Both the position numbers and the translations under genes were made by a program. The notes below the pieces were generated by a model that ran no database searches, had not been told where the DNA came from, and saw only the letters and a program-made list of their open reading frames with translations. This document shows positions 19,932-59,464 of a stretch of 64,000 nt of DNA, piece by piece. The stretch lies in assembly GCA_964542755.1 (NCBI GenBank), contig CAZIWL010000004.1:20916-84915 (forward strand). The letters are read 5' to 3'. Within the stretch, counting starts at the first letter, position 1. Every line of letters begins with the position of its first letter. Origin of the DNA: an uncultured Anaerolineales bacterium. Lineage in GTDB: Bacteria; Chloroflexota; Anaerolineae; B4-G1.

Positions 19932-19940
19932 GGAGGTGGA

Positions 19941-35223: not shown

Positions 35224-36195
35224 CTACTTGTCCATGATCGTGGAGAGATTGTACAGGTCCTTGTCGAGTTCCTTCTGGTAGGTGACCGCCTCGTCAAGGG
35301 GAAGGATGTGGAAATCGCTATTGAGCCATCCGACCATATGACCGGAATTGCCCCCCACGAGTTGTCTGACCGCTTCCGCTCCCAGCCTTGTGGCCAGGAT
35401 TCGATCGAACGCACTGGGGGACCCGCCACGCTGCACGTGTCCCAGCCGTGTGACCCGCACTGAGAAGCCAAGCTCTTCCTCGCGCGCATTTAGCTCCCGG
35501 GCGATCTCGTCCGTACCGGGTTTCCAACCCTCAGCGACCACGATAATAGCGTGGGCCTTGCCCCGAATGTAGGCTTTTTCGACGGTCTCGGCCACATCGT
35601 CGAGCGTCGACTCGATCTCCGGACAGAGCACCAGCTCAGCACCCCCGGCGAGGCCGCTGGCGAGAGCAAGATAGCCTGAGTTCCGTCCCATCGTCTCGAT
35701 AAGGAAGGCGCGGTTGTGGGAAGAGGCCGTGTCCTTGATCTTGTCGATGGCCCCTAGAATGGTGTTCAGGGCCGTATCGACGCCGATCGATATATCGGTC
35801 CCGTTGATGTCATTGTCGATCGTGCTGGGAATGCCCATGGTGGGGAAGTCCAGACGATGGAGCTCCAGCGCACCTGTCAAGGATCCATTTCCTCCGATAA
35901 CGACCAGGCCGTCGATGTCGAAACGGTTCAAGGTACGGAGTGCCTTCCGCCGTCCCTGCAGCGTCTCAAACTCCGGGGCTCTGGCGGTGCCTAGGATCGT
36001 CCCCCCACGACCGAGGATGCCGCCCACGTCCCGGGCATCCATCTCGTCGATCTCTCCCGCGATCAAGCCGGCGTAGCCGCGGCGAATGCCCATCATCTCC
36101 ACACCCTCGTGGAGTCCCATGCGCACCACGGCGCGGATGCACGGGTTCAGCCCGGAGTTGTCCCCGCCACTAGTTAAAACACCTATTCGATCCAT
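35224..36195 (-). CDS. pfkA: 6-phosphofructokinase, ATP-type group with atypical GGNGS / PSTIDND motifs
   Basis: MDRIGVLTSGGDNSGLN, ETMGRNSGYLAL and RVTRLGHVQRGG are all PFK hallmarks. ATG 36195 is preceded by AGGAGG; the track ORF runs to 36282. Asn replaces the Asp of the canonical GGDGS motif. Confidence 0.85.
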   Translation of the reverse strand: MDRIGVLTSGGDNSGLNPCIRAVVRMGLHEGVEMMGIRRGYAGLIAGEIDEMDARDVGGILGRGGTILGTARAPEFETLQGRRKALRTLNRFDIDGLVVIGGNGSLTGALELHRLDFPTMGIPSTIDNDINGTDISIGVDTALNTILGAIDKIKDTASSHNRAFLIETMGRNSGYLALASGLAGGAELVLCPEIESTLDDVAETVEKAYIRGKAHAIIVVAEGWKPGTDEIARELNAREEELGFSVRVTRLGHVQRGGSPSAFDRILATRLGAEAVRQLVGGNSGHMVGWLNSDFHILPLDEAVTYQKELDKDLYNLSTIMDK

Positions 36196-36288
36196 CGTAT
36201 CCTCCTGGTCCTGGTGTCTCAGAACGGGTGCCACAGGTCCGTCCAGTTGACTGTTCGGGCTCCCGTTGGCCAACGCGACCACGTAGGC

Positions 36289-44542: not shown

Positions 44543-45850
44543 CTAGATATGCGGGAGTGAGCCGAGATTCTCCTTGGATAGGGGTGGTCGGTAGGTGAAG
44601 AGCTGTGTGCCGACGACGAAGCATGCGAGGGCGAAGAGCAGGAGCACTGCTGAGGGGCGAAGGACATCGCCAATCGTCCCGCCGTAGAATATCAGGGCGT
44701 TCAGCGCGTCCAAGGCCCAAGCGATAGGTGAGATATGGCCCAGCGTACGCATCCAAGAAGGCACGAAGGCCAGCGGCCACCAAGCACCTCCCAGTGGTGC
44801 GAGCACCATGTACGCGGAGGTGGCAAGACTGCTGGCCTGTTGCGGTGACTGCGCCACCGCCCCCAGCACCAGGGCCAGGGATGCGATGGCCAGGACGTAT
44901 GCCGTGCCAACGATCAACGCACCGAGAGGGGCGGTTCCAAGGTTTGCTCCAAGCAATCCGCCAAAGAGCAGCAGAACAGCGAACTGAAGGATTCCCAGGA
45001 AGCAGGTCGCGAGTAGCTTGCCTCCCAGCAAGTGCGCCCTGTTCACCGGCATCGTGCCGATGCGGGGCAGGATGCCGACCCAACGTTCCTCGGCCAGGGA
45101 CTGCGCCATACCCAGGATGCTTACCATGACAAACATAACGACGATACTGGGCGTCGAGAGCTTGAAGCCGTTTTCGAGGACCTCGGCACCCATGATTTGG
45201 GCCTGGCTCCGTTGGTCAGACGCGGCTGTCATCCGGACCATCGGAGCGCGTCCGAACGCTGCGTCGACGTGGGCCCGCCGGGCTGCTGTGAAGGAAGGTC
45301 CAGTTTCGATCTCCAGCGACTCGGCCGCCTGGACGCTCAGACGGGTAGCCAGGATGGGGCCGCCAATGGTGGCGACGGCGCTCTCCAGCGCGACATACAC
45401 GATCTCGGACGCTGCCGAGGACCCGCGGGTCTCTAAGACGACGGACGTGTCCTGTCCGCCGACCAGCGAGGCCTCGAAATCACGTGGGATACGCACGATG
45501 GCGAACGTGATGTCATCGAGCAGTCGGTGGCGGGCGAGCGAGGGCGACAAAGAGAGGGTACCGACATCGAGTCCGCAGCCTTCGTCGCTATGGCCGCAGC
45601 CTGGGCAGAGCAAGAGCGTTGTGTTGGCGTCCCGGAGGGCGGCCAGAAGGGCCCTGGACGTAGAGGTTCCATCCTCGTCTAAGACGTCCACACGGATCGT
45701 GGCCGGGACGAGGCGCGCCACACCCTGGGCGCCCACGCCGGCCAAGTATATGATCACCATGGGCAGGACGAGGAGCAGGAGCCAGTTTTGCTTCTCCCGC
45801 AACGTCATCTGAAGCTCGTTTCTGGCAACTACCCAGATCTTGAACATCAC
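44543..45850 (-). CDS. ABC-2 type transporter permease
   Basis: N-terminal TM helix plus a large extracytoplasmic loop, then 5 C-terminal TM helices; the ABC-2 family pattern. Confidence 0.75.
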   Translation of the reverse strand: MMFKIWVVARNELQMTLREKQNWLLLLVLPMVIIYLAGVGAQGVARLVPATIRVDVLDEDGTSTSRALLAALRDANTTLLLCPGCGHSDEGCGLDVGTLSLSPSLARHRLLDDITFAIVRIPRDFEASLVGGQDTSVVLETRGSSAASEIVYVALESAVATIGGPILATRLSVQAAESLEIETGPSFTAARRAHVDAAFGRAPMVRMTAASDQRSQAQIMGAEVLENGFKLSTPSIVVMFVMVSILGMAQSLAEERWVGILPRIGTMPVNRAHLLGGKLLATCFLGILQFAVLLLFGGLLGANLGTAPLGALIVGTAYVLAIASLALVLGAVAQSPQQASSLATSAYMVLAPLGGAWWPLAFVPSWMRTLGHISPIAWALDALNALIFYGGTIGDVLRPSAVLLLFALACFVVGTQLFTYRPPLSKENLGSLPHI

Positions 45851-45867: not shown

Positions 45868-47160
45868 CTAGAGGAACGTGGTGCGGCGCCTCAGGAGCAT
45901 GCCGCCGACGAGGAAGGACAAGGATGCCATGGCGAGTAGGATCGACAGGTGTGGAAGCAGGCTGGCTGGGCTGCCACCGTTGGCGGCTTTCAGGAATCCA
46001 TCCATCGCCCAGTACTGGAAGGTCAGTTTCGAGGCGGTATCAAGTGGTCTCGGCAGCAACGAGACAGGGAGGAAGATGCCGCCGAGTAAGCCGCTCAGCA
46101 AGACGACGGCGCGGCCGTAGTTCGCCGCCTGCACATAGGAGTTGGCGAGTCCCGCGATGGTCACTCCAAGGCCTGTTGCCGAGGCCACAGTTGCCCCTGT
46201 CAGGAGCACGAGGCTCAGCCCACACACGGATGCGCCGCCGGGCGAGCCTCCCTGCCATCGCTCCCACAGGGCCACTCCGCCTATCATGGCGACCATCTGC
46301 ACGGTGCCGTTCAGGAAGGTGCCCAACGTTTTGCCTCCCAGGACGACGCCGGGCCATGTCGGCGTCACTTGCATTCTCTGCAGGGTCCAGGAAGCTTCCT
46401 CTTCCAAGAGCGAGGCGCTGCCCATAAGGGCTGTGAGACCCGTGAAGGATATGCCGAGCGCAGCTGCCAGATAGTGCGTCAGGCGTACCTGCGGTGCCGG
46501 GGGCCCGACCAGTAGACGCTTGATCTTGACCGGGTTCGATTCTGGCGAGGCGCCCTTGAAGGCTACCTCTGCGACGAACTCGTCCAACACACCCTCCCTC
46601 AGGCGTGCCCGTGAGTGGGGGTGCTGGGCGAGCCCTTCGACGGTTGCGTAGACGGCGGCCTCGGCGGTCCGTAGTCTCTGCCCCAAGGCCTCGATCATGC
46701 ATGCGAACGCCTCGCCACGGAAGTCGTAGGTGTCGTTGAGGTAGATCTCCATTGGGCTCCGTCCGGTGCTCCACGATGCTGAGAAGTCGGGCGGGATCAA
46801 GACTGCAGCCACAAGTCCTTCTTGCCGCACCAGTTGCCGCGCCTCGCGCTCAGAGCTAATGCGGCGGACGTCGAGAAGGTCGAATGGTTCGCTGTGGCTC
46901 ACAGCCGGTTCCGACGGATCAGCATGGAGGGCTGCGACGATCAGGTCACCGAAGTTGCCCCATTCACCTCCTTGGTCTGAGTTGACTACCCCAACGGGTA
47001 TGCGGGGGTTTGGAATGCCCCGGCTGAGGAACAGGTCCCCGAAAGCAAGATCGATGAGAAGAGTCACCAGCAGGGGCGCAGCGATGGTCAGACACAGAAC
47101 TGCAGGATCGGTGAACCGCAGTGCCACGTCCTTCCAGGCAATGAGGAGTAGCTTTCTCAC
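45868..47160 (-). CDS. ABC-2 type transporter permease (paralog)
   Basis: Same architecture as the downstream permease (N-terminal TM, large loop, C-terminal TM bundle). It overlaps the ATPase gene by 4 nt. Confidence 0.75.
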   Translation of the reverse strand: MRKLLLIAWKDVALRFTDPAVLCLTIAAPLLVTLLIDLAFGDLFLSRGIPNPRIPVGVVNSDQGGEWGNFGDLIVAALHADPSEPAVSHSEPFDLLDVRRISSEREARQLVRQEGLVAAVLIPPDFSASWSTGRSPMEIYLNDTYDFRGEAFACMIEALGQRLRTAEAAVYATVEGLAQHPHSRARLREGVLDEFVAEVAFKGASPESNPVKIKRLLVGPPAPQVRLTHYLAAALGISFTGLTALMGSASLLEEEASWTLQRMQVTPTWPGVVLGGKTLGTFLNGTVQMVAMIGGVALWERWQGGSPGGASVCGLSLVLLTGATVASATGLGVTIAGLANSYVQAANYGRAVVLLSGLLGGIFLPVSLLPRPLDTASKLTFQYWAMDGFLKAANGGSPASLLPHLSILLAMASLSFLVGGMLLRRRTTFL

Positions 47161-48140
47161 TGAGATGCTTCCTCCAGCGTCTCACCGGTAAGCTGCAGAA
47201 AGACAGATTCCAGGCTGGGCCGCTGGACCGTCAATGCGTCGATTGTCAGCCCTGTGGCCCTCACGGCTTCAAGGATAGTCGTCAGTCGGTCGGCAGCGCG
47301 GTGGACGGAGACGAGCAGTGAGCCGTCGGCGGCTTGGACCTGAGTGACATCGGGCAGACGCCTCAGGGCACCCATGGTCGAGTCAGATACGGGGGTTGGC
47401 TGGACGTGTAGGCGCACAGAGTCGGCCACGCTTGAGGACCGGACCAGCTGCTCCGGGGTGTCGAGAGCGATGATGCGTCCGCGATGCATGATGCCGACCC
47501 GCTGGCTGAGCTCCTGTGCCTCGTCCATGCGGTGGGTCGTGTAGAGGATCGTTGTGCCATAGTTCTGGTTCAATCCGACGACGAGGTTGAGTATCCTTCG
47601 TCGGCTGTCCGGATCGAGACCCAACGTGGGCTCGTCTAGGTAGGCGATCTGGGGCTCGTGGAGCACACCCGCCGCGACGTTGAGTCGCCTCTTCATGCCA
47701 TTGGAATAGTGCGCGACCCTGTCGTCCGCCCGTTCGGAGAGTCCAACGGTCTCCAGTGCTGCCTCTATGGCTTCTCGGAGCGCTTTGCCCCGCAAGCCGT
47801 AGAGCAGGCCGAAGTACCTGAGGTTCTGCCTCCCGGTGAGGCGGGTGTAGAGGGCCAATTCCTCAGGAACCACGCCGACGAGACGTTTGACGGCCATTGG
47901 ATCACGCGAGACGCTGTGACCCGCGACGAACGCGTCACCTGCGGTCGGACGGAGAAGGCCGCAGAGCAGGGCGATCAGCGTGGTCTTCCCTGCGCCATTG
48001 GGGCCGAGAAGGCTCAGAATCTCACCCTGTCGAACTACGAGCGAGACATCGTTGACGGCCAAACTTCCGTCTGATGCACGGTACTGCTTGGAGAGATGCC
48101 GCACACGGATTATCTCAGTCATCTGGGCTCTCCTGGTCAC
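47157..48140 (-). CDS. ABC transporter ATP-binding protein
   Basis: Walker A GPNGAGKTT, ABC signature LSGGMKRRL-like (YSNGMKRRLNVA), Walker B LDEPTLGLD, H-loop. Confidence 0.9.
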   Translation of the reverse strand: MTRRAQMTEIIRVRHLSKQYRASDGSLAVNDVSLVVRQGEILSLLGPNGAGKTTLIALLCGLLRPTAGDAFVAGHSVSRDPMAVKRLVGVVPEELALYTRLTGRQNLRYFGLLYGLRGKALREAIEAALETVGLSERADDRVAHYSNGMKRRLNVAAGVLHEPQIAYLDEPTLGLDPDSRRRILNLVVGLNQNYGTTILYTTHRMDEAQELSQRVGIMHRGRIIALDTPEQLVRSSSVADSVRLHVQPTPVSDSTMGALRRLPDVTQVQAADGSLLVSVHRAADRLTTILEAVRATGLTIDALTVQRPSLESVFLQLTGETLEEASQ

Positions 48141-49134
48141 CGATCCGCGGCGGCCAGTCTATCTTCGGACAAAAGGGTTGGGCGAGAACGTCCCGGTCGA
48201 TGGCCGCGTTGGGCCAGCGGCTGACGAGTATCCGTCCCTCCGCGCCCAGGGACGGTCGCGGGTCGACCTGGATAGAGAAGTCAACAAACTCATCCCACGA
48301 GCCCGCGAACCTGCGAGGCCAGTCCTGTGCTGATGGATGATCCAGATCGAGGCGGCCCTCCTCACTAAGACGATCATACGCGTCGTGCATCGCCCACGCA
48401 ATGCTCTCAGCGTCAAGAGCCTCCCAACCTAGAAGAAGCGACCCGTGTTTCCCCCACTGTACGCCGATCCAGGGGCGTCCATGGTGTCGGTTTGCATCGG
48501 CGGCCGCGGTCATGGTGGTCAAGAGGTGACCGTGGAAGTAGGCGTAGACGGCCGTCACCTGGAGGCTGGTCTGGTCGTATGCCACCCAGATGACTTCATG
48601 ATCCGATGGCTCACCATCCCCTGGGTAGTCGATGTCGTCCCCCCAGAAAAGATGATAGCCCACGAGCGGGCGAGTTGGATGCAGTACCGCGACAGCGTCC
48701 TCCAGGGGGAAGTACTCGGTCGGAGTGACGAAAAGACGGGGAGTGTAGCGGAGCGCTCGCTCCCGTTGCTCTGCGGAAGGTGCCGCGGGAGGTTCCAGTT
48801 TCAGAAGGTGCCGGTATGTTTCGCTAGCAGCCTGGAGTTGGCCGCGGTTGTGGTGGGCCGCGGCCAGGCTGTTTAGGGCACCGGGATTGGTCAGATCGCG
48901 GCTCTCGCGGGCTGGGGATACGGGCGTTCGCATGCACCCGCCCAGCGACGAAACCGCCAGTACCGCCAGCAGTGCGATCAACCTGGCTCGACAGGGATGA
49001 CTCCGCGTCCCGCAGCGTGGTGCGCCAGCGCCCGTCCGTCCGCGCCGACCGAGCTGTATTTCGCGAGGCTCGTCTTGTTGCCGGGGCGCGATCACGTCTC
49101 GTAGAACCCTTTCCGGCTCCAGTCCTCTTCCCAT
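48115..49134 (-). CDS. hypothetical lipoprotein (start uncertain)
   Basis: Lipobox segment LIALLAVLAVSSLGGC. The track start at 49134 would overlap the radical SAM gene by 43 nt, so the real start is probably further downstream (candidate TTG). No recognised domain. Confidence 0.5.
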   Translation of the reverse strand: MGRGLEPERVLRDVIAPRQQDEPREIQLGRRGRTGAGAPRCGTRSHPCRARLIALLAVLAVSSLGGCMRTPVSPARESRDLTNPGALNSLAAAHHNRGQLQAASETYRHLLKLEPPAAPSAEQRERALRYTPRLFVTPTEYFPLEDAVAVLHPTRPLVGYHLFWGDDIDYPGDGEPSDHEVIWVAYDQTSLQVTAVYAYFHGHLLTTMTAAADANRHHGRPWIGVQWGKHGSLLLGWEALDAESIAWAMHDAYDRLSEEGRLDLDHPSAQDWPRRFAGSWDEFVDFSIQVDPRPSLGAEGRILVSRWPNAAIDRDVLAQPFCPKIDWPPRIGDQESPDD

Positions 49135-50495
49135 GCCTTGTCTGCAAGGGCCTTGTACGACTCTGCGAAGCCGAGCAGTTGATCAAAGTGGTCGTAGTAG
49201 AGGCTGAGGGCCCCGGGATGGGTCGGATGAGCATCGTGCCTTTCTATCAGGTCCCGGGCAACCCATGGAGAGTCGATGATCATACAGGGGCGTAGGTGAT
49301 TGCTGTCGTAGGGCTGTCGTGCCCTGATGTCCTTGAAGAGCGGGCTCTTGAGAGCCGCAAGAAGGGTCGTGTCGCGAACGTTGTCCGTTGCGAAATGGGT
49401 GAAGACGCACGGCTCGATGTCGCCTCGAGCGTTAATGTGAAAGTACCGGCGCCCGCCGGAGATGCACCCTCGGACATACGGCCCATCGTTCCAGAAATCA
49501 ATGATCAACAGGGGCAGGTGGCTGCGTATGTCCCGCAGTGAGCTCCTAAGGAAGTCTCGTTGATCTGGGGAGAGCATGGATGAGAAGTCTCCGGACCCAT
49601 CCACCGGGACGTACATGAAGTAGTAGTTCACCAAGGCACCTTGGTCGACCAAGAACTCCAAGAAGCGGAAAGAAGTGACCTCTTTGAGGTTCTGTCGGGT
49701 GACGGTTACCGAGGTCCCGAAGGGCACCTTCGCTTTTCGCAGGTGCCCGAAAGTGGTCAGGATTCTCTCGAAGACCCCGGATCCTCGCCTCGTGTCGGTG
49801 TTCTGCTGGAAGCCCTCTATGCTGATCAGGACCAGTACGTTTCCCATCTCTGCCAGCCTCTCCGCGGTCTGCGGAGTGATCAAGGTCCCGTTGGTATAGA
49901 TGTGAAAGAAAAAGTGAGGATACCTTTGGATGACGTCCAGCGTGTGCGGATAGAGGAAGGGTTCGCCGCCGCTGAGGACAATCAGAAAGATGCCAAGTTC
50001 CTCACATTCTTTGAGGATTCTATCTAGGAGGCGATGGGAGAGTTCGTCGACTCGATCGTACCCACTGGCGTAGCATCCACGGCATTTCAGATTGCACGCG
50101 TTGGTCGGGCTCAGAACCAGGAGGATCGGGAAATTGGTGATCCCGTGCTCCGCGGTCAGTCGTTTTCGTCGCTCGTGACCCCAGATCCAGCAGTTGTAGA
50201 GAAGCGTCTGGAAGAGCCGCTGCCGACCGTAAGCGGACATAGAGCCCATTGCTCGCTCGAAGAATGCCGCCGCCGGGTGCTCGGGGTTCTCCAGCATCTC
50301 TAGCACGCCAGCGACGAAGCAATTGAGTTCGTCGTGTCGTGAGAAGGATCGAATCAGTCGCAGCAACTCGGTGATATTCCCGCTCCTCGGGACGGCCAGC
50401 TTGCTCAAGATATGGCCGATAGTCTGATGGCTCAGCTTGACGGAGGCGTCTCGGATATCCTTCAGTGGTTGCATCGTTCGCTCCCGAGAGAACAT
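49092..50495 (-). CDS. radical SAM enzyme with a Cys-containing C-terminal auxiliary (SPASM/twitch-like) region, immediately downstream of the ether-lipid genes
   Basis: CX3CX2C in CNLKCRGCY followed by the GGEPFLYP glycine-rich SAM motif. C-terminal Cys residues at CEELG, GCISGG, GDIEPCVF and LRPCMI. An N-terminal extension of about 125 aa lacks the B12-binding signature. Confidence 0.85.
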   Translation of the reverse strand: MFSRERTMQPLKDIRDASVKLSHQTIGHILSKLAVPRSGNITELLRLIRSFSRHDELNCFVAGVLEMLENPEHPAAAFFERAMGSMSAYGRQRLFQTLLYNCWIWGHERRKRLTAEHGITNFPILLVLSPTNACNLKCRGCYASGYDRVDELSHRLLDRILKECEELGIFLIVLSGGEPFLYPHTLDVIQRYPHFFFHIYTNGTLITPQTAERLAEMGNVLVLISIEGFQQNTDTRRGSGVFERILTTFGHLRKAKVPFGTSVTVTRQNLKEVTSFRFLEFLVDQGALVNYYFMYVPVDGSGDFSSMLSPDQRDFLRSSLRDIRSHLPLLIIDFWNDGPYVRGCISGGRRYFHINARGDIEPCVFTHFATDNVRDTTLLAALKSPLFKDIRARQPYDSNHLRPCMIIDSPWVARDLIERHDAHPTHPGALSLYYDHFDQLLGFAESYKALADKAWEEDWSRKGFYET

Positions 50496-50610
50496 CTTGA
50501 TGGGCCTTGCCCGGCAGGTTCGTAGTCCTCAACTGCATGCCGTCGGCGAAACAGCACCGGGGACGTGGCTCGTTTCCGCCGGTGACCGGAAGCGAGCCAG
50601 CGACTGGGGC

Positions 50611-51375
50611 CTAGGAGCGGCGCCAGTGGATCTGATCGGAGAAGGCGCGCAGGGTGCTTGGCGCCAACGAGCGCTCGATGACTGTCCCGATGACCACCAT
50701 GTCTGCCCCCGCTTCCAACTTCTGTCTCGCAGTTTGCGGATCCCTGATCCCTCCGCCTACCAGGATTGGGAGGCTGACTCGTTCTCTGACAGCAGCAATC
50801 ATAGCGTCCGGCACAGGGTTGGAGGCCCCGCTTCCCGCTTCAAGATAGACGGCCTTCATGCCTAGCTGCTGGGCGGCCAGGGCGTGTACCATGGCGATCT
50901 CGGGCTTGTCCCGCGGGATCGGTTTGACGCCGCTGAAGAACTCGGCGGATGTTATCGTGTCAGACGCGATGAGCAAGTAGGCCGTGGGGATAGACTCAAG
51001 GTTGCATCGGTCGATCCATAGGGCACTTCTGACCTGCTCGCCGATGAGATACTCAGGGTTCCGGCCGCTGACCAGGCTGAGGAGAAGGATGGCATCGAAA
51101 TCTGGAGAGATCTGCGCGGCCGGGCCGGACGCGCCCGGAAAGAGGATCAGTGGGCAATCCACCGACGCACGGATCGTTGCCACTGTCTTGTGAAGCTGGT
51201 CGGTAAATAGAAAGCTACCCCCCACCAGGATGGCATCCGCACCCGCTGCCGCAGCGTGCCGGGCGAAAGCCATGGCGTCATCTCCGGCCTGCTTGTCGGG
51301 GTCGTTGAGGGCCAGGAAGACGGCGCCTTTCTGGGCGATGGCGTCGAGCAGGTACTCGTAGACACTCACAGCCAT
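50611..51375 (-). CDS. geranylgeranylglyceryl-phosphate synthase / PcrB family prenyl-glyceryl-phosphate synthase
   Basis: PcrB/GGGPS TIM-barrel motifs FLALNDPDK, ILVGGS, YLEAGSG and VGGGIRD, aligning with B. subtilis PcrB (LDPNK, IIGGS, YLEYSG, YGGGIKD). Confidence 0.85.
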   Translation of the reverse strand: MAVSVYEYLLDAIAQKGAVFLALNDPDKQAGDDAMAFARHAAAAGADAILVGGSFLFTDQLHKTVATIRASVDCPLILFPGASGPAAQISPDFDAILLLSLVSGRNPEYLIGEQVRSALWIDRCNLESIPTAYLLIASDTITSAEFFSGVKPIPRDKPEIAMVHALAAQQLGMKAVYLEAGSGASNPVPDAMIAAVRERVSLPILVGGGIRDPQTARQKLEAGADMVVIGTVIERSLAPSTLRAFSDQIHWRRS

Positions 51376-52262
51376 CCTCCCAAGTCAATCCCGCGGGAGA
51401 GCCCGATAAGCAGGAAGAGGAAGATGTAGAGGTACATGGCGGCCTTCGTCCAGCGCTGGACGCGGCCGGCGATTGCCGGGGTGCCGAGCGTGAGCCGGGT
51501 TGCCGTCCAGAGGACGAGGATGTTGATGAGCGACGCTCCGACTACGTAGAAGGGGGCGAACGGACCAGGGTAACGCGAGAGATAGGTGACGGGGACGGCC
51601 AATAGGAGGAGCAGTCCTGCCACGCGGCAGGATGACGAGGCGCCAATCAGCATAGGAAGACTGCCGACGCGGGTGGTGCTGTCCCCCGTTAGGTCTTCGA
51701 CATCCTTCACAATCTCGCGGGAAAGGGTGGCCATGAAGATGCACGCGGACCACGGCACGGTGGCCAGGAGATTGTCTTGAGCGAATCCACCGATCATAGC
51801 GTTGTTGGCAGCAAGCGTGGCTATCACGAGGTTACCCAAGAGACCGCTGGATCGCTTGACCTTCCAAGAGTAGAGGAAGAGGAGCATGGCTGCGACGGAG
51901 GCACTGGCGAGCGCCGCCTTGTTGATCGGAAGGAAGAGGATCGGGGCGGTGATCAAGAGGGTTAGGGCGTAGGTGCGCGCGGCCGGGCGAGCGATGAGAC
52001 CGGCTGGAAGAGCACGATCTGGATGGGCGAGTCTGTCCGTGGCGTGGTCGAAGACGTCGTTGAGGGCATAGCCGCCGGCGGCAACGAGCATGGAGCCCGC
52101 GACGGTCAAAGGCACGGAGGTGGGATGCGAGGAACGGCCCATCGCGAGAAGGGAAGAGGCGAGCGCCAGGATCCCCACGCCGAGGCAGTTGAGGGGGCGA
52201 GAGAGCATGATGAGGGGAGGGGCGATGCTACGTATCACGGCGGCGTCCAAGCGAAGGCCCAC
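51366..52262 (-). CDS. UbiA-family prenyltransferase (DGGGP synthase-like)
   Basis: Asp-rich motifs NDVFDHATD (NDxxDxxxD) and KDVEDLTGD. Eight or nine TM helices. It overlaps the GGGPS gene by 10 nt. Confidence 0.85.
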   Translation of the reverse strand: MGLRLDAAVIRSIAPPLIMLSRPLNCLGVGILALASSLLAMGRSSHPTSVPLTVAGSMLVAAGGYALNDVFDHATDRLAHPDRALPAGLIARPAARTYALTLLITAPILFLPINKAALASASVAAMLLFLYSWKVKRSSGLLGNLVIATLAANNAMIGGFAQDNLLATVPWSACIFMATLSREIVKDVEDLTGDSTTRVGSLPMLIGASSSCRVAGLLLLLAVPVTYLSRYPGPFAPFYVVGASLINILVLWTATRLTLGTPAIAGRVQRWTKAAMYLYIFLFLLIGLSRGIDLGGWL

Positions 52263-52720
52263 TGCGCCAGGAGGAGCAGGGAGAGTAGGTGGACGAAGGG
52301 GAAATCCTGCAAGAGCGTCCCGATCGATACCATCTGGCGCATTGTCGAGACCTGACCGGCCCGCAACGCAGACGGGCGTTGACGCGCGGCATATCGGACG
52401 ATCCAGAGCGTCTTGGGGATCACCCAGAGTGTGATGAGCAGGGTGGACAGGGTGCCGGGGTAACTGGCGAAATAGGCCGTGTACACCACGAACTCGGCGA
52501 ACATGTCCATAGCGCGGTCGGTTTGGGGCGAGTCTTGTCCTTGCCTGCGCGCGACGGCGCCGTCAGCGCTGTCGAGAATGAGCGCCATGAAGAGGAGACC
52601 GACGGCGGCCCCCGGTCGATGGAGAAGGATGGTCAGTGCGGAGGCGAAGCACATCCAGCCGCGCAGCCGTGAGATCTCATTTGCCGGCAGCGGAATGAAG
52701 GCGAGGAGTTGGTCGGCCAC
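52235..52720 (-). CDS. CDP-alcohol phosphatidyltransferase family protein (small; start uncertain)
   Basis: The signature DSADGAVARRQG...TDRAMD matches D-x2-DG-x2-AR...D-x3-D with a degenerate middle. The start is placed at GTG 52720 because the upstream part of the track ORF (to 53062) is occupied by the YdjM-like gene. An ATG at 52654 is an alternative start. Confidence 0.6.
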   Translation of the reverse strand: MADQLLAFIPLPANEISRLRGWMCFASALTILLHRPGAAVGLLFMALILDSADGAVARRQGQDSPQTDRAMDMFAEFVVYTAYFASYPGTLSTLLITLWVIPKTLWIVRYAARQRPSALRAGQVSTMRQMVSIGTLLQDFPFVHLLSLLLLAQWAFAWTPP

Positions 52721-52740
52721 CTTCTTGCGCTGACCCGTTG

Positions 52741-53187
52741 CTAGGCTACGGAGATGAGCAAGGATGCTCCGATGACCCCTGCCTCCTGTATGAATCGTAT
52801 CCAGAACTTCCTCCCAAGGGGCTGGTCCGCCGGGTTGCCAAAGTTGATCCTTGTGGGATCCGCGTAGATGAGTCGGAATGGAATACTCACACCGGAGATG
52901 AAGTCCAGAAAGAGGTGCACAGCCACGCAGAGGAGAAAGAGGCTGCCTGTCTGGCGGTGGAGGAGGGTCATGAGCAGTCCCGCAGTGCCATAGATGGTGG
53001 CCCCGAAGAGCCCGTGCATAAAGGTCTGAGATGTCTCGAACCCGTTGACCTGGAGTTTCCATCTCGCGGCGCTCGGCAGATGGTCGAGATCTGGCATCAC
53101 CGAGAAGGCGACGGATGCTGGAAGATAGCCGGAAGGGAAGAATTGGCTCAGTGCAATGCCGACAGCAACGTGGGTTACGATGTTCAC
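52741..53187 (-). CDS. YdjM/DUF457-like membrane-bound metal-dependent hydrolase
   Basis: The N-terminus MNIVTHVAVGIAL...MPDLDHLP is the YdjM family pattern (His/Asp metal ligands in TM-embedded segments). 148 aa. Confidence 0.6.
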   Translation of the reverse strand: MNIVTHVAVGIALSQFFPSGYLPASVAFSVMPDLDHLPSAARWKLQVNGFETSQTFMHGLFGATIYGTAGLLMTLLHRQTGSLFLLCVAVHLFLDFISGVSIPFRLIYADPTRINFGNPADQPLGRKFWIRFIQEAGVIGASLLISVA

Positions 53188-53199
53188 GGGCGATAGGGT

Positions 53200-54339
53200 T
53201 CAGAAAACGTTGAGAACAAATTGAGCAAACCTATCGTGACGACGCATGGCCTGAATCACGCGATCCAGAACGCCAGGAACACTAAGGAGTCGCTGAGCGA
53301 CAGCCTCTCTTTCCAGTTGCCTGCCGATGGCAGCACGGCAGTGACGGTCGAATCGACGGAGTTCCTGGTAGGTGCCTCCATCGCTCCCCAAAGCGTCGTG
53401 AACCACGGCAGCGGCTGTGCGACCGCTCTCAAGAGCGTTGTAGATCCCCCCACCTGTCAAGGGACTCACGAAGAACCCGGCGTCACCGACGATCAACGCG
53501 CCCGGGTAGCTTCTCCGCACTCTTCCCGAGGCGAGAGGCAGCAGTCCACTGGAGGCCCTTCCGATCTGCTCGGCACCAGAGAACCGCGCCGCCAAGTAGC
53601 GGCCGTGGACGAATGTCTCAAAGGCCTTCCTCAGAGACACCCGATCCTTGCGCGCGACGTCAAGACGCAGCCCCACCCCCACGTTGGCCCGGCCGTCGCC
53701 AAGGGGGAAAATCCAGGCATAGCCCGGCAGCGTGGACTGGTTGAAGAAGAACTCCGCACGCCCACGAGATTCCACGCCTTCAAAGTAGGCTCGCCGGGCA
53801 ATGGCCGCGTGTCGCGAACTGGGGCGGTCGGGCTGGAGCCGTCGGGCCAGAGTGGAGGTGGCGCCGTCGGCGATGATTGTGATCCGGGCTCGACGGTCCG
53901 CGGTCTTCCCGTTGGTTGAGCCTCGCACTCCTCGGACGAGGCCGTCCTCCACGATGGGCTGGGTAGCACGAAAGCGCTCAAAACGCGCCCCTTCTTCCAA
54001 AGCCTTCTGCCACAGAATGTGGTCGAGGCGCTGCCGATGCAGGACGTAGCCGTGGCGAGAACGCCCGTTCTTCTGGGGAAACGCGCCCTCATACGTGTGA
54101 CCGGATGGGGATACGCCCAGCACGTGGTGGCAGCTGTAGAGGGCCTCTGTCTGGCCCTCGAGATCGATGTCAAGCTCGGACAGCAGTCGGAGTGTGTTCC
54201 AGCCTATGCCGTCACCGCAGACCTTCGGGCGGGGAAACTCAGCCTGGTCCAGGAGTGTAACCGGAACGCTGTGTCGCGCCAGGACCATGGCCGCCGCGCT
54301 GCCCGCCGGGCCGGCGCCAACAACCAGGACCCCATCCAT
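53200..54339 (-). CDS. geranylgeranyl reductase family FAD-dependent oxidoreductase
   Basis: FAD motif VVGAGPAGSAAA, then KVCGDGIG, and the GGR-family C-terminal motif LIVGDAGFFVSPLTGGGIYNALESG. Confidence 0.85.
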   Translation of the reverse strand: MDGVLVVGAGPAGSAAAMVLARHSVPVTLLDQAEFPRPKVCGDGIGWNTLRLLSELDIDLEGQTEALYSCHHVLGVSPSGHTYEGAFPQKNGRSRHGYVLHRQRLDHILWQKALEEGARFERFRATQPIVEDGLVRGVRGSTNGKTADRRARITIIADGATSTLARRLQPDRPSSRHAAIARRAYFEGVESRGRAEFFFNQSTLPGYAWIFPLGDGRANVGVGLRLDVARKDRVSLRKAFETFVHGRYLAARFSGAEQIGRASSGLLPLASGRVRRSYPGALIVGDAGFFVSPLTGGGIYNALESGRTAAAVVHDALGSDGGTYQELRRFDRHCRAAIGRQLEREAVAQRLLSVPGVLDRVIQAMRRHDRFAQFVLNVF

Positions 54340-54346
54340 GAAGCCA

Positions 54347-54375
54347 TTCTATCATGGGTGCGTGGGGTCGTCAAT
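54347..54375 (-). promoter_or_regulatory. promoter TTGACG-N17-TAGAAT ending 7 nt upstream of the GGR ATG (leaderless mRNA predicted)
   Basis: Minus-strand reading: TTGACG (54375-54370), a 17-nt spacer, TAGAAT (54352-54347), then GGCTTC and ATG at 54339. There is no room for a Shine-Dalgarno sequence. Confidence 0.45.
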
Positions 54376-54490: not shown

Positions 54491-57400
54491 CTACGTTCCC
54501 CGGAGGACGAGGGGCAAGAAAATGGACGGCTCCAGCGTCTCGATGGTGATCGTGTGGGTCTGACTGACGACGCGGCCAATCGCATTCTGCGCGGTTACAG
54601 TGACTACGTGCTCTCCCGGGACGTGCCAAATAGCCTCCAAGCTGTCGCTAAGGCTGTAGCTCCGTCGTACCCGTCCGGGCCACCACTGGTGGGTGGCGCG
54701 CCAGGTGTAGGTGACAGGGACGGTTGCACTGAGGGGCTCGACCATTGCGCGTAGGGTCAGGAACTGGTCGGCGAGGCCGTCGCGGGGACCCTCGATACTC
54801 ACAGCTGCAAGTGGGACAACGGGCGCGACGGGCGTGTATTCTGTGTATTGATTGTCAAAGGGCGTGGGGTCGTGCTCGTCGGCAGTGGCTTGCAGCAGGG
54901 TGGCGATGGTGCCGGCCGTCGTAATGTGCAGGCTGAGGGTCAAGGTGACCGAGTGGCCTTCAGCAATCCGGCCTATGCGACAGGATAGGGTCCCCTTATC
55001 ACGGCTGCACGAGCCCTGGTCGACCCTGAGCGTAGCGAACTCCGAACCTGTGGGCAGCGTAGCGGTTAGCACGACGCCGGACGCATCATCCGGCCCGCGG
55101 TTGCTGATGACGACGGTGTGCGTCAAGAGCTGACCGGCCAAAGGCTGCGGCGGCACATGGCCGGCGCTTACTGTCAGATCAGCCACCGGCGCGACAATCA
55201 TATCGAACACTCGCGCGCGCGCTGAGGAGGGCTCGGCTTCGGAAGCGACCAGTACCGAGACCGGGTTCGTGGTACCCAGGGGCACATCTGGAGGTACCCG
55301 GATACTGAGCAGACTGAGGGTCTCACCATCGTCGTCCAACGAGACCATCGTTGCCCGGGGTCCAGTCAGCCAGCCGTGGGCGTCGCTGATCGTCAGCACG
55401 GCGGTTCGGGCGAGCCCCGTCCAGTCCAAGACGCGGATGACGGCCGAATCCGAGACGCCCCGCGGCACGTAGGTGGGGTCCTCGTCAGGGACGACAGTGA
55501 GCGAGCGGGGCCCCGGGGCCCACGGCTCGCATTCGACGGAGCCGCGGATCTGGTCTCTTGGGTCGGCGGTCTGACCCCACCAATTGCCCGAAGCCGACAC
55601 CGTGACGCCGCCGTCGGCGTTGACGAGCGCGTATCCCGCATTGTCGAGGAAGTCGCTTTCTTCCACGGCGAGGGAAGTCAAGCCACCAAAGAGTGTGACT
55701 CCGTCGTCGCCATTTTCGGCGATGCGGCAATTGTGGATGCCGGGCGGCATCGAGTCAGCGGCGGCGGGCCAGTTCACCGGGGTGTCCCACTCGCGGCGTG
55801 CTTTTTGCTCGGGCCCCACGTCCGCCCAGTCATCGTGCCACGTCTCGAAAGCTATACCGCCACTGGTATTGCCGGAGACGACGAGGTCGACCAGCTTGGG
55901 CTGGACGGCGGCGGCGTAGACGCCGTAGCCCTCATTGCTGCTGATCTGCCCGTCGCGGATGGACAGCGATCCGCGGCTGAGCATCAGGCCGTGCCCCTCG
56001 TTCAGATTGACAGTCAGACGGTGTCCGAGAAAGTTCACGTCGCTGCCGAGGATGCCGCCGAGCGCATTGCCGTGCAGCGTGGTGCTCGACATAGCTAGGG
56101 GACCCGCGCCGTACGCGTATATGCCCCACCCGTCGTTGTGGGAGATGTCGGCCTGGGTGACGTTCACGGCGCTGGCGTAGGCGCGGAGCCCGTCTCCCCG
56201 ATTGTGCTGGACATCGCTGTCGGTGCCCCGCAGGACGAGCCCGGCCCGCTCAAGATCGATGCCGTGGCCCGCGTTCTTGCGAATCTGAACGTCGGTGAGC
56301 TGGAGGTTGCAGTTCTGCAGCCGGATGCCTGGGCCGCCATTCCCCACCACAAGGAAACCCTCCGGCAGCGAGAGCCCTCCAGAGGCAGAGATTCCGCCCA
56401 GGTCGTTGCCCGTGACCCCCTCGAGGGTATCCTTCAGGACGGTAACCGGACCGGTCTGCGCGAAGATACCCCAGCCTCCGTTGTCCCGGACCTGGGTTCC
56501 CCCGCTGACTAGAATCGCGCCGGGGGACGCGTGGAGCCCATTTCCTTGGTTGCCGACGATCCGGTTGTTGGCACCCCTGAGGATCAGCGAGGGGAGCGCA
56601 TCGGGCCGCCAAGGAGCGCCTCCAGCAATCGTTACGCCGCCGCCGAGGTTGTCCTGGACGATGACATCCGTCAGCTCGGTATCGTCGTCGCCCCAAACGA
56701 CGATTCCGGGGCCCCCGTTCCCCTCGACGGTGAACCCGACCGGGAGGGTCAGGTTACGACCGGCGAACAGGCCGCCGCGCTCGTTGTCCCGCAGGGCATC
56801 CATGGCGCCCTCGGCGATGAAGACCGATCCACCCTCGGCGACGATGCCCCAGCCGCCGTTTCCGGAGATTTCGGCCTGGCCGCGGATGGTGACTGAACCG
56901 GGAGCCGCGACGATCCCGCCGCCCCCGTTGTTTGTGATCTGGTTGTCGTCGCCGCCGAGAATCAGCCCCGGCACGACGGCTTTGCCCGCATGACCGGTGA
57001 CCACGACGCCAATGCCGACGCCGCGGTTGTCTCGAACACTAATATCCTCGAGCCGGGTGTCTCGGCCCGACCAGACGACGATACCTGGTCCGCCGTTTCT
57101 CTCAACTACGAACCCTGAGGGCAGGCCGATGCCCGCGGCTGCGTAGAGACCACCTCCTCCATTAGCGGCAACGGTGTAGACTGCATCCTCAGGCACGCTG
57201 ATAGACCCCTCATCTGCCCGGATGCCCCAGCCTCTATTGCCCACGACTTCGGTGGAGGCCTCAAGGGTGACGTTTCCAGACACGGCTCGGATCCCATCGC
57301 CGCCGTTGTTCGCGATGCGATTCTCCTCGCCGCGAAGTAGTAGACCCTTACCGAGCCCCCCTCCGCCGGGACCCACGGTCAGCAGGAGGCCGTCTTCCCC

Positions 57401-59464
57401 GTTGTTGAGGACCTGGACGTTCTGCATTACCACGTCATCCAGCGTGGAGGCCACAATGGCGGGGCCGTCGTTCCCCTCCACGGTCAGTCCGTCGGCCGAA
57501 AAACTCCCATCCGCGGTGTAGATACCGCCCTCGTTGTCCGTGACTTGACAGTCGTGGAGGGTAACCCCCCGCCGGGCCAGCACGCCCCAGGCCCTACGCG
57601 CATCCCGGATCGTGAGGCCCTCAATGACCGTCATCTCCTCCATCGTCTCAACCACCGGTTGGGCGGTGCTGGCTGCCCGCAGGACTGTCTCCTCTCCTGC
57701 GCGGGCGGAGCTGAGCGTCAGTGACTTGGTCACGCGCACGTTCTCGGTGTGCTCGCCCGGGCAGATGATGAGGGTATGAAGATCCTTCGTCAGCGGGTCG
57801 TCGACACCAACCTGGACGGCATCGAAGGCCCGCAGCGAATGGCTGTTGATAACGGAGCCCACCTGGACATACCCGGAGGCACCGCCGCTGATGGTCCCCG
57901 GTGCATGGCGGACCGGGCTTGCATCGATGAAGCCGCGGTCGACCTCGACAGCGTAACGCGCCAGTGTCATTTGATCGGAGTCTCCACTGCCCGTTCGGTC
58001 GAACCGGTAGTGTGCAGACAATTCGATACACTCACCCGCGTTTACGGTGAGTTCGCTAGGCTCAAAGCGCACCAATCGTTCCCCCGGTTCCACGAGCCTC
58101 GCCCTGTCGAGTGGGCTGCCACCGTGGATCAAGGTGAGTTGGTCCGGTCCTGTTCCGCCTCGCTCATCCCGAGAGGTACGAATGCCAACGGCGTCCACGT
58201 GCCAGTCGTCCGCCTCACTCGCACAGAGGGTGAAAGTGAGGATGGGATGGTCCGCGATACCCCGGGGCGTACACGTGACGCCCGCGTCACGCCCGCGCAC
58301 GTCGAGACGGGGAGCGAAGACAGCCACAACGGGCTCGACGCCACCGTCCGGGCAGGCGACAACGCAGGTGGGGTCGTCTCCACAGGGTTCGGCGTAGCCT
58401 TCCCAGTGGTCAAACACCCAACCCTCCCGGGCGCTGGCTTCAAGCTGAATTGGGCCGTTGCCGCACGGGCATGTGGATGGGTTTGCAGAGACCGTCCCGG
58501 CTGCGTCCAGCGGACGCACGCGCGGGTCCACGCCGCAGACCGTGTCTGCGGATCTCCCAAACCTGACGACGAGATCGGTGCACTCCGGGGCTGGATGCTG
58601 GAGCGTGCCCGGACCTTCCGCCTCCTGAACGGTCCATCCTGGCGCCGCCCGGGCATCCAGAGCGATGGGCAGACCACACCAGCCCTCAGACGGGTCGGCC
58701 ACAGCCGTGCAGCCAGCAGACTCGGCCTCTTCGGGCTCGACCCGTACCGAAGCGCAGCACGTCTCCAGGTCCTCAAAGGTCAATGTGAGTGTCGGCCCGC
58801 TTCGGTCACTGTCTGCGGTCCACCATTCCTGTCTAGCCCCGGCGGCAGCGGCAAGACGGAGTCTGAAACCGATCGTCGGCGACCGGGTCGGGTCTGTGCT
58901 GAGCTGGGACGGTGGAAGGTGGTCTAGAGCGTGCCCAACCAGGGTAGTCACGTCCCAGACGTCACGTTTGCCCGATCCGGCCTCTGAGAGGACAGTGACC
59001 GCCTCACCGGCTCTGGTATCCACGGCCGGCTGCGAGGCCCAGGTAACCGAGGTCTCATCCCAGCGTGCCTCCGGATGCACCAATTCTGCCACAGCGGTCT
59101 CGCTGGCGGCGGTGCTCTCGTCGTGGGGGACCAGCGTCAGGGTAGCAGAGACGAGCTGCGCGCCCCGCGGGATGGCTTGCGTCGGGAATCCGACGAATGC
59201 GTGGGCACCCTCCCAGGCGAAGAGGGTTTCCCACTCTCCGAAGGAGGTGTCAGGTTGAGCGTCCCAGGCGAAGGTGTCGTGCAGGGCCGCGAGTTCAATA
59301 GTCTGCTTCTGGGAGGGGCTGGCGGGAGTCGTGCCGCTCCGTGGGGTGAGGCCTCGATGGAGGAGTGCGAGTGCGGTAAGAACGAGGAGGACGCCCACCG
59401 CGATCAGGGCGATGGAAGCTCGCTTGCCAGAGAAAAGGGTAGCGTGATTTCGCTCTGTCGCCAC
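54491..59464 (-). CDS. giant (1657 aa) signal-anchored surface protein with right-handed parallel beta-helix (PbH1) repeats and C-terminal DUF11 domain(s); ends in the IFLPLVLRGT tag
   Basis: N-terminal TM anchor ASIALIAVGVLLVLTALALL. Dozens of N-x-G-x-G-[IL] beta-helix repeat units. The DUF11-like segment is LTHTVVISNRGPDDASGVVLTATLPTGSEF. The C-terminus is LEPSIFLPLVLRGT. Confidence 0.8.
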   Translation of the reverse strand: MATERNHATLFSGKRASIALIAVGVLLVLTALALLHRGLTPRSGTTPASPSQKQTIELAALHDTFAWDAQPDTSFGEWETLFAWEGAHAFVGFPTQAIPRGAQLVSATLTLVPHDESTAASETAVAELVHPEARWDETSVTWASQPAVDTRAGEAVTVLSEAGSGKRDVWDVTTLVGHALDHLPPSQLSTDPTRSPTIGFRLRLAAAAGARQEWWTADSDRSGPTLTLTFEDLETCCASVRVEPEEAESAGCTAVADPSEGWCGLPIALDARAAPGWTVQEAEGPGTLQHPAPECTDLVVRFGRSADTVCGVDPRVRPLDAAGTVSANPSTCPCGNGPIQLEASAREGWVFDHWEGYAEPCGDDPTCVVACPDGGVEPVVAVFAPRLDVRGRDAGVTCTPRGIADHPILTFTLCASEADDWHVDAVGIRTSRDERGGTGPDQLTLIHGGSPLDRARLVEPGERLVRFEPSELTVNAGECIELSAHYRFDRTGSGDSDQMTLARYAVEVDRGFIDASPVRHAPGTISGGASGYVQVGSVINSHSLRAFDAVQVGVDDPLTKDLHTLIICPGEHTENVRVTKSLTLSSARAGEETVLRAASTAQPVVETMEEMTVIEGLTIRDARRAWGVLARRGVTLHDCQVTDNEGGIYTADGSFSADGLTVEGNDGPAIVASTLDDVVMQNVQVLNNGEDGLLLTVGPGGGGLGKGLLLRGEENRIANNGGDGIRAVSGNVTLEASTEVVGNRGWGIRADEGSISVPEDAVYTVAANGGGGLYAAAGIGLPSGFVVERNGGPGIVVWSGRDTRLEDISVRDNRGVGIGVVVTGHAGKAVVPGLILGGDDNQITNNGGGGIVAAPGSVTIRGQAEISGNGGWGIVAEGGSVFIAEGAMDALRDNERGGLFAGRNLTLPVGFTVEGNGGPGIVVWGDDDTELTDVIVQDNLGGGVTIAGGAPWRPDALPSLILRGANNRIVGNQGNGLHASPGAILVSGGTQVRDNGGWGIFAQTGPVTVLKDTLEGVTGNDLGGISASGGLSLPEGFLVVGNGGPGIRLQNCNLQLTDVQIRKNAGHGIDLERAGLVLRGTDSDVQHNRGDGLRAYASAVNVTQADISHNDGWGIYAYGAGPLAMSSTTLHGNALGGILGSDVNFLGHRLTVNLNEGHGLMLSRGSLSIRDGQISSNEGYGVYAAAVQPKLVDLVVSGNTSGGIAFETWHDDWADVGPEQKARREWDTPVNWPAAADSMPPGIHNCRIAENGDDGVTLFGGLTSLAVEESDFLDNAGYALVNADGGVTVSASGNWWGQTADPRDQIRGSVECEPWAPGPRSLTVVPDEDPTYVPRGVSDSAVIRVLDWTGLARTAVLTISDAHGWLTGPRATMVSLDDDGETLSLLSIRVPPDVPLGTTNPVSVLVASEAEPSSARARVFDMIVAPVADLTVSAGHVPPQPLAGQLLTHTVVISNRGPDDASGVVLTATLPTGSEFATLRVDQGSCSRDKGTLSCRIGRIAEGHSVTLTLSLHITTAGTIATLLQATADEHDPTPFDNQYTEYTPVAPVVPLAAVSIEGPRDGLADQFLTLRAMVEPLSATVPVTYTWRATHQWWPGRVRRSYSLSDSLEAIWHVPGEHVVTVTAQNAIGRVVSQTHTITIETLEPSIFLPLVLRGT

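Follow-up and report, generated by a model that had tools for sequence, protein, structure and literature searches.

An archaeal-type isoprenoid ether lipid gene set in a putative operon of a bacterium of the Chloroflexota

The 'lipid divide' that separates Archaea from Bacteria is central to early cell evolution, and it can best be tested on natural bacteria with lipid genes of the archaeal type. Here we describe a block of six minus-strand genes from an uncultured Anaerolineales bacterium of the phylum Chloroflexota (GenBank assembly GCA_964542755.1, contig CAZIWL010000004.1). The whole stretch of DNA analysed, 64,000 nt long, is called the window, and coordinates are positions in the window. 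The products are a geranylgeranylglyceryl phosphate synthase (GGGPS), a prenyltransferase of the UbiA family resembling digeranylgeranylglyceryl phosphate synthase (DGGGPS), a flavoenzyme of the geranylgeranyl reductase (GGR) family, a small polytopic membrane protein similar to YdjM (DUF457), a mini CDP-alcohol phosphotransferase-like protein (mini-PT) and a radical SAM enzyme, each of which scores above the curated cut-off of its broad family. Taken together, the genes make it fairly probable that the operon encodes an archaeal-type pathway producing isoprenoid glycerol diether lipids.

The PcrB homolog is, judged by its profile and structure database matches, a group II GGGPS. It reaches 198.3 bits with the GGGP equivalog TIGR01769 (cut-off 161.55) and 276.1 bits with NF003198 (cut-off 247), and it aligns over the full length with the GGGPS of Methanothermobacter thermautotrophicus (PDB entry 4mm1; 165.8 bits, E 1e-47) and Flavobacterium johnsoniae (4jej; 158.8 bits), while entry 6jo3 scores 149.3 bits. 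The motifs ILFPG and SL(L/V)SGRNPEYLIG and the phosphate-binding YLEAGSGA and VGGGI are kept, although they are uninformative on stereospecificity. The C35 heptaprenylglyceryl phosphate synthases (HepGPS) of the Bacillus type give at most 38 bits (38 for the entries 3vzx and 1viz, and likewise for the enzymes of B. subtilis and S. aureus) and 31.9 bits with the model NF003197 (cut-off 260). A first-pass annotation of the window, made from the sequence alone, had assigned the protein to the PcrB/GGGPS family and considered that it could fall into the HepGPS clade instead; the assignment is upheld by the equivalog score, and 166 bits for GGGPS compared with 38 for HepGPS speaks against a place in that clade. 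The enzyme would join geranylgeranyl diphosphate to glycerol phosphate and thereby form the first ether bond.

The UbiA-family protein (PF01040, 92 bits; cut-off 34) has three DGGGPS models as its top NCBIfam matches, PRK12882 (160 bits), PRK12884 (155.1 bits) and PRK12883 (138.2 bits). All these scores are below the equivalog cut-offs (296, 269 and 353, respectively) and therefore the protein is filed here as DGGGPS-like, which it is by its sequence, and not as a certified ortholog. Among solved structures, the DGGGPS of Methanocaldococcus jannaschii (6m31; 99.5 bits, E 2e-27) is its one strong relative. Both Asp-rich motifs recognized in the first-pass annotation have their counterparts in this enzyme (NDVFDHATDR and KDVEDLTGD in the window, NDIFDIEIDR and KDFEDMEGD in M. 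jannaschii), and in their extended forms, NDvfDhatDR...RaLPaG and REIVKDvEDltGD, they are near-identical to it. The window protein is closer to the archaeal DGGGPS, at 99.5 bits, than to the DGGGPS-like proteins of Bacteroidia (approximately 46-58 bits). It would add the second prenyl chain through a second ether bond.

Relatives of the UbiA protein at 45-52% identity are few, approximately six, all from Chloroflexi and one of them named DGGGPS by PGAP; identity to anything outside Chloroflexi is 38% or less. In a distant Chloroflexi locus (L011) the DGGGPS-like gene adjoins a GGR gene. In another one (L012), positions 7687-10855 hold a GGR gene split over three frames by a frameshift or an assembly error, then a gene for a 213-aa CdsA-like cytidylyltransferase and the DGGGPS-like gene, and an HMG-CoA reductase gene is found 9 kb away, at 19764-20855. 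These contexts, with GGR, CdsA-like protein and HMG-CoA reductase, support a phospholipid-type chemistry for the UbiA clade.

The reductase had already been attributed to the geranylgeranyl reductase family, and it indeed passes the cut-off of TIGR02032 (193.4 bits compared with 158.8) as well as that of PF22578 (GGR_cat; 34.9 bits compared with 27); FAD_binding_3 also matches. With the archaeal DGGGPL reductase models it scores 115.5 bits (NF041160, cut-off 780) and 111.2 bits (NF041080, cut-off 580), and with the menaquinone reductase MenJ slightly more, 124.9 bits (cut-off 700). The predicted role of this flavoenzyme is to reduce double bonds of the prenyl chains.

The similarity to MenJ, together with the sub-threshold scores of the UbiA protein and its small and divergent clade, could be taken to mean that the UbiA protein prenylates a quinone, a pigment or a polyprenyl-phosphate sugar, and that the GGGPS by itself yields a monoether, as in the case of PcrB. 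We regard this as very unlikely. The top profile matches and the only strong solved relative are all DGGGPS, the chlorophyll, heme o and 4-hydroxybenzoate prenyltransferase models reach no more than 48 bits (ChlG 48, CyoE 38, UbiA/MenA-type at most 35, with UbiA itself at 25-35), the two Asp-rich motifs and the RxLPxG segment follow M. jannaschii DGGGPS closely, and the gene overlaps that of GGGPS by 10 nt. A grouping with quinone or chlorophyll prenyltransferases, which would have spoken against the original interpretation, was thus not found; chlorophyll synthase scores 23 bits compared with 99.5 for DGGGPS.

As first described, the six genes are located on the minus strand and are tightly spaced or overlapping (Table 1). 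The GGR and YdjM-like genes are 12 nt apart and the YdjM-like and mini-PT genes 20 nt; the mini-PT and UbiA genes overlap by 28 nt, or are separated by 26 nt with the 280-aa UbiA start. After the 10-nt overlap between the UbiA and GGGPS genes, approximately 115 nt precede the radical SAM gene. A promoter-like site is found solely 5' of the GGR gene, immediately before the start codon; by its match to the consensus it is likely to mark the operon start. No convincing intrinsic terminators were detected inside the block, and no tRNA or Rfam elements in the window. The original delimitation of the block has to be modified: the six genes are co-oriented, but the co-orientation runs past the radical SAM gene, down to position 44543.

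Table 1. Features of the lipid gene block and of the genes continuing it, with positions in the window.
Feature	Position	Strand	Remarks
Sigma-70-like promoter candidate	54346..54374	-	TTGACG-17-TAGAAT with TG extension; 10/12 consensus matches
GGR-family reductase	53200..54339	-	379 aa
YdjM-like (DUF457) small polytopic membrane protein	52741..53187	-	148 aa
Mini CDP-alcohol phosphotransferase-like protein	52235..52720	-	public gene calls; 161 aa from GTG start; mechanical ORF up to 53062
DGGGPS-like UbiA-family prenyltransferase	51366..52262	-	298 aa, or 280 aa with alternative start
Group II GGGPS (PcrB homolog)	50611..51375	-	254 aa
Radical SAM enzyme	49092..50495	-	467 aa; 460 aa in public call
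Lipoprotein, NLP (necrosis-inducing protein-like) fold	48115..49134	-	lipobox LGGC just before public start 48933
ABC transporter ATPase, DrrA-like	47157..48140	-	Pfam ABC_tran, DrrA1-3_C; TIGR01188 drrA 291 bits, cut-off 312
ABC-2 type permease 1	45868..47160	-	PF12698, PF01061
ABC-2 type permease 2	44543..45850	-	PF12698, PF01061, PF12679; last gene of packed block

Four independent metagenome assemblies of the organism carry the block, and it is found with the same gene order in two relatives, L005 (on a 155-kb contig) and L010, at approximately 70% protein identity. The six open reading frames (ORFs) are intact and have a high coding bias in G+C at third codon positions (GC3). At 0.60-0.62, the block has the G+C content of the remaining contig and thus shows no sign of recent acquisition. 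The host contig is bacterial. In addition to DnaE (DNA polymerase III alpha), RNase J and UppP/BacA, which bear out the earlier statement that the gene set resides in a bacterial chromosome, the window encodes two phosphofructokinases, ketol-acid reductoisomerase and methylmalonyl-CoA mutase, and the radical SAM, UbiA and lipoprotein genes have close homologs that carry the label Chloroflexi or Chloroflexota. A GGGPS scan of species-representative genomes retrieved one relative only, from a metagenome-assembled genome (MAG) of an uncultured Anaerolineales bacterium.

Between the reductase and prenyltransferase genes are those of the YdjM-like protein and the mini-PT. The latter had been listed as a small CDP-alcohol phosphatidyltransferase. 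This stands in so far as the PF01066 cut-off is passed (34.2 bits compared with 22), but the protein is a non-canonical mini-protein, truncated and divergent, and its best NCBIfam match, archaetidylinositol phosphate synthase, is a weak one of 26 bits. While the canonical CDP-alcohol transferases (PssA, PgsA and the PIP and AIP synthases) have approximately 190-280 aa and a core of six or more transmembrane (TM) helices, the mini-PT has 145-161 aa and approximately four to five hydrophobic segments. Of the canonical residues it keeps D1, D2, G, A, R, D3 and D4, in the motif DxxDGxxAR-x9-DxxxDxxxE with a spacer three residues shorter, so that D-x2-D-G-x2-A-R-x9-D-x3-D is found in place of the signature D-x2-D-G-x2-A-R-x8-G-x3-D-x3-D. 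Compared with M. jannaschii PssA (7pow), the four Asp, the first Gly, the Ala and the Arg are retained, and a 3-residue deletion removes the second Gly. The family is very rare: twenty relatives, most of them 143-149 aa long, were found among 1.84 billion cluster representatives (full HMMER scan and phmmer), with no canonical CDP-alcohol transferase among them; distant family members are weak precomputed PF01066 matches only. Invariant in the family are D50, D53, G54, A57, R58, D68, D72 and E76.

The sequence in frame with and 5' of the mini-PT GTG codon (52720-52810, minus strand; …ILAHLRSLATGQRKK, LRSLATGQRKK) matches the family N-terminus LTxxRKxxAD, and no in-frame ATG, GTG or TTG is present in it. 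Translation may start at a non-canonical codon (ATC at 52765, ATT at 52795 or CTG at 52804), overlapping the end of the YdjM-like gene as in other loci.

The YdjM-like protein scores 38.6 bits with PF04307 (cut-off 29). Its subfamily has the invariant residues H6, D33, D35, H36, H58, H91 and D95, a His/Asp pattern such as is expected of a metal site. The sequence search gave no solved relative, and an apparent literature match for 'DUF457' was discarded, being in fact DUF4579 of Cap1.

To trace the gene pair, mini-PT loci L017, L018 and L019 and six metagenome loci were examined beside the window and L005. In all ten loci with upstream sequence (the window, L005, L017-L019 and L020-L024, from at least six lineages) a YdjM-like gene is situated directly upstream of the mini-PT gene on the same strand, often overlapping it. 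The partner proteins match the YdjM-like protein of the window with 74-95 bits, whereas the generic Pfam model gives only 38.6. The gene order in L017:5070-11659 is HpnN/MMPL-like RND (resistance-nodulation-division) transporter, YdjM-like, mini-PT, PAP2_3, PIP-synthase-like CDP-alcohol phosphotransferase and inositol-1-phosphate synthase, and the pair is thus located within an inositol-phospholipid cluster. In L018 it adjoins a gene for a DedA/VTT protein.

The pair is a conserved, self-contained and co-inherited membrane module, which would act on lipid head groups. Its simplest model would be a phospho-alcohol transferase with a cognate metal-dependent phosphatase, the YdjM-like protein then possibly paralleling the phosphatase in PgsA/Pgp or PIP synthase/PIP phosphatase; a two-subunit transferase is the alternative. 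In the proposed pathway the module would add the head group in place of a canonical archaetidyl-X synthase. No earlier description of the gene pair was found. It might be the means by which such bacteria complete the lipid in the absence of the CDP-archaeol synthase CarS, and a subfamily of the uncharacterised YdjM/DUF457 proteins would thereby gain its first functional context.

A confident structural model (pLDDT 84.6, pTM 0.87) was obtained for the radical SAM enzyme (PF04055, 81.7 bits; cut-off 29.5). In this model five to six bundled helices at the N-terminus (residues 11-117) precede the radical SAM core, and the C-terminal part forms an Fe-S domain. The best structural matches of the enzyme are SuiB, SkfB and anSME. 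The CxxxCxxC triad, C344-x13-G-x4-C363 and C404 are invariant in the family alignment. As only three C-terminal Cys are invariant, the domain is of the twitch type with at most one auxiliary cluster. From its position in the operon, the enzyme probably modifies the lipid. Tes (GDGT-MAS), Gms and Mss are likewise radical SAM enzymes of the SPASM/twitch structural class. Gms also resembles the window enzyme in the succession of N-terminal helical domain, core, bridging region and C-terminal Fe-S domain, a layout compared here by description (PMC11186832). Unlike the window enzyme, however, Gms and Tes have two auxiliary clusters, and Tes in addition a rubredoxin site. Identification as the tetraether synthase Tes was rejected, since the enzyme fell outside that group when judged by homology to MA_1486/MJ0619 and by the presence of two auxiliary [4Fe-4S] clusters and a rubredoxin-like site. 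For Gms and Mss, membership has been defined as an E value of 1e-50 or better with at least 30% identity (PMC11186832, PMC13159169). Mss homologs have been reported in Chloroflexi and deltaproteobacteria, and it is possible that the window enzyme is an Mss, a protein known here from its literature description.

The radical SAM family is large, and homologs with approximately 45% identity are common in Desulfobacterota MAGs; the locus sets one member of this unannotated family beside lipid genes. In a genome of the Desulfobacterota type (L008:8001-10834 and L009:8001-10834) the gene of a homolog with 45% identity has a B12-binding radical SAM gene behind it; the two overlap by 4 nt in L008, and by the gene call of L009 they are 47 nt apart. 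This succession recalls that of Gms and Gmm. A gene for a PCMT-like methyltransferase is present near the homolog in L008, L009 and L006. Orphan homologs were also found on the Klebsiella pneumoniae plasmid pFF1023_1 (L026:7911-9212) and the Escherichia albertii plasmid pEA5_1 (L027:2254-3633). A role of these plasmid copies in defence was not supported, as PADLOC shows only generic core similarity to pVip. In L005, the conserved radical SAM gene is separated from the lipoprotein gene by the insertion of a second radical SAM gene (11449-12735), whose product has a full SPASM domain and is similar to AhbD/NirJ (303 bits with the heme b synthase model, cut-off 500). Only short fragments are found at this position in L010 (2221-2908), and the window has none.

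Downstream of the radical SAM gene the block continues with the lipoprotein and an ABC-2 type exporter (Table 1). The lipoprotein and ATPase genes overlap by 26 nt and the ATPase and permease 1 genes by 4 nt, and 17 nt separate the two permease genes. The lipoprotein has no family match, and its homologs in other phyla stand in contexts unrelated to lipids or ABC transporters; its membership in the lipid system is uncertain. Synteny of the ATPase and permease genes is kept in L005, and in L010 both permeases were matched by phmmer, while no ATPase ORF was detected. The lipoprotein and the exporter, whose genes are co-oriented and syntenic, may handle or export the lipid product.

From the gene identities, order and conservation, and from the pairing of the YdjM-like and mini-PT genes, we infer the enzymatic steps named above and the final lipid. 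As the first-pass annotation had pointed out, glycerol-1-phosphate (G1P) dehydrogenase and CarS are not encoded in the stretch: when the proteins predicted in the 64-kb window were scanned with Pfam, none matched the former (EgsA/AraM; Fe-ADH/DHQS-like) or CarS/CTP_transf_1, nor was a GGPP synthase or an isoprenoid precursor pathway found. Activation of the lipid with CDP might be carried out by the housekeeping CdsA in place of CarS.

These gaps weigh against an archaeal-type pathway, as do several other observations. In addition to the DGGGPS-like protein scoring under every equivalog cut-off and the reductase being slightly closer to MenJ than to the archaeal DGGGPL reductases, the mini-PT, which has lost a conserved Gly and approximately two TM helices, may not be a transferase at all, and in L020 and L021 the pair is found among non-lipid genes. 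Neither the Desulfobacterota homologs of the radical SAM enzyme nor the plasmid-borne ones (34-36% identity over 82-88% of the length) have lipid genes as neighbours, the latter being surrounded on their IncF plasmids by insertion sequence (IS) elements. Only in close relatives was the ABC transporter seen to be syntenic, and a functional link to the exporter is therefore only suggested.

The absence of G1P dehydrogenase and CarS from the window would also be expected if the genes were a relic, or if they served the salvage or catabolism of archaeal lipids by reactions running in reverse. The frameshifted GGR gene of the relative L012 points in the same direction. In the window, however, the six ORFs are intact with their high GC3 coding bias, the catalytic motifs are kept, and so is the gene order in relatives at approximately 70% identity. 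Moreover, prenyl-ether formation is, to our knowledge, not known to be reversible in cells. Thus a relic or a salvage system is scarcely credible here, even though reverse or salvage use has been published as one possibility for bacteria without G1P dehydrogenase (Coleman et al.; PMC6431249).

A more serious alternative, which we nevertheless find rather unlikely, is that the cluster makes a minor prenyl-glycerol carrier or anchor for surface material, exported by the ABC-2 transporter, and not a bulk membrane phospholipid. Such a lipid would be comparable to the heptaprenylglyceryl lipids that Bacillales contain in low abundance, or to the lipid anchors of archaeal PGF-CTERM surface proteins. 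It would suit the non-canonical head-group enzyme and the absence of CarS from the window, and also the surroundings, since the exporter and lipoprotein genes continue the same co-oriented block and giant secreted proteins with a YLP-box and beta-helix or PKD domains flank it on both sides. Yet this flanking arrangement is known from three closely related genomes only, and the YLP-box scores just reach or fall short of the cut-offs of their models. The block lacks a gene for a transpeptidase or a sortase-like protein, exporters of the ABC-2 type are generic, and other Chloroflexi have GGR and DGGGPS-like genes without a transporter.

The giant proteins are three in number (41684-44503, 54491-59464 and 59797-63867, all on the minus strand), with DUF7948/SBBP/PKD domains, CBM96/beta-helix/CLIPPER domains or beta-helix repeats. 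They are the only proteins of the window that end in (F/Y)LPLV(L/S)R plus one to four residues, and the same ending is encoded at L005:3499-3564 and L010:9769-9834. Their scores with the NCBIfam 'YLP-box putative sorting motif' models are 12-13 bits for NF050076 (cut-off 15) and 10.9 bits for NF053834 (cut-off 10). No mention of the YLP-box sorting motif was found in the literature, and we know of no processing enzyme for it.

A further, bolder reading combines these elements: the YdjM-like protein and the mini-PT would be a new two-subunit membrane enzyme for head-group attachment with no need for CarS, and an ether lipid modified by the radical SAM enzyme would be exported by the ABC-2 transporter and anchor the YLP-box proteins. 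The enzyme could follow a Kennedy-type route, with a soluble CDP-alcohol as donor and the dephosphorylated diether as acceptor, and the modified lipid could be a cross-linked, macrocyclic or membrane-spanning isoprenoid ether. We hold this combination to be quite improbable. If true, it would be a bacterial counterpart of the lipid anchoring of archaeal PGF-CTERM proteins.

The phenomenon of archaeal-type lipid genes in bacteria is already known and is not new here. Archaeal-type GGGPS and DGGGPS have been described in the Fibrobacteres-Chlorobi-Bacteroidetes (FCB) group and in some other phyla (PMC7852524, PMC6431249). The GGGPS and DGGGPS of Candidatus (Ca.) Cloacimonetes gave archaeal-type lipids in Escherichia coli despite the missing CarS and G1P dehydrogenase, and the bacterial CdsA, with the activity shown for that of E. 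coli, was proposed as the CarS substitute in Ca. Cloacimonetes (Villanueva et al. 2021; PMC7852524). The window shares with these systems a group II GGGPS, a DGGGPS-type UbiA protein, geranylgeranyl reductase(s) and proposed archaeal-type ether lipids alongside bacterial ones, as well as the gap at CarS and G1P dehydrogenase, established here for the window. It differs from them in the phylum, Chloroflexota (Anaerolineales), and in the arrangement of the genes in one overlapping operon; the YdjM-like/mini-PT pair, the twitch radical SAM enzyme, the lipoprotein and the ABC-2 exporter are additional, and the UbiA protein is nearer to the archaeal DGGGPS than to the DGGGPS-like proteins of Bacteroidia. 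The words 'operon', 'gene cluster', 'adjacent' and 'synteny' do not occur in the text of PMC7852524, nor does it mention Chloroflexi, and no literature linking Chloroflexi or Anaerolineae to such a cluster was found.

Similarly to the canonical archaeal pathway, the proposed one would follow the same order of chemistry, with homologous GGGPS, DGGGPS and GGR and a head-group step by a member of the CDP-alcohol phosphotransferase superfamily. The differences are that G1P dehydrogenase and CarS are missing from the 64 kb, that the CDP-alcohol phosphotransferase is truncated and always paired with a YdjM-like protein, and that the host is a bacterium with genes for a peptidoglycan-type envelope (UppP). 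With the PcrB of Bacillales the window GGGPS has in common the (beta-alpha)8 fold of the PcrB/GGGPS family, the occurrence in a bacterium and the predicted prenyl-glycerol-phosphate ether; however, PcrB has no DGGGPS partner, whereas the window enzyme belongs to group II and its gene is overlapped by a DGGGPS-like one.

New are the occurrence in this phylum, the packing of the genes into a single compact operon, a DGGGPS that is like the archaeal enzyme and not like that of the FCB group, the conserved module of YdjM-like protein and mini-PT, and the accompanying genes for a twitch radical SAM enzyme and an exporter. The locus extends archaeal-type lipid genes in bacteria to Chloroflexota. At approximately 5 kb, or 10 kb with the exporter, the operon is of a size that allows its synthesis and direct expression without cultivating the organism; the product, its stereochemistry and the head group are thus testable through expression of the operon.

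Elsewhere in the window, positions 13047-14576 (plus strand) encode a ketol-acid reductoisomerase that carries an SCP2 sterol/lipid-transfer domain (PF02036, E 1.8e-9) at its C-terminus, a fusion of which we know of no description. A tungsten-type aldehyde:ferredoxin oxidoreductase is encoded at 11074-13035 (plus strand), and two tandem phosphofructokinase genes are located at 35224-37572 (minus strand). The oxidoreductase and the tandem phosphofructokinases suggest an anaerobic fermentative lifestyle, which would fit an oxygen-sensitive radical SAM step.

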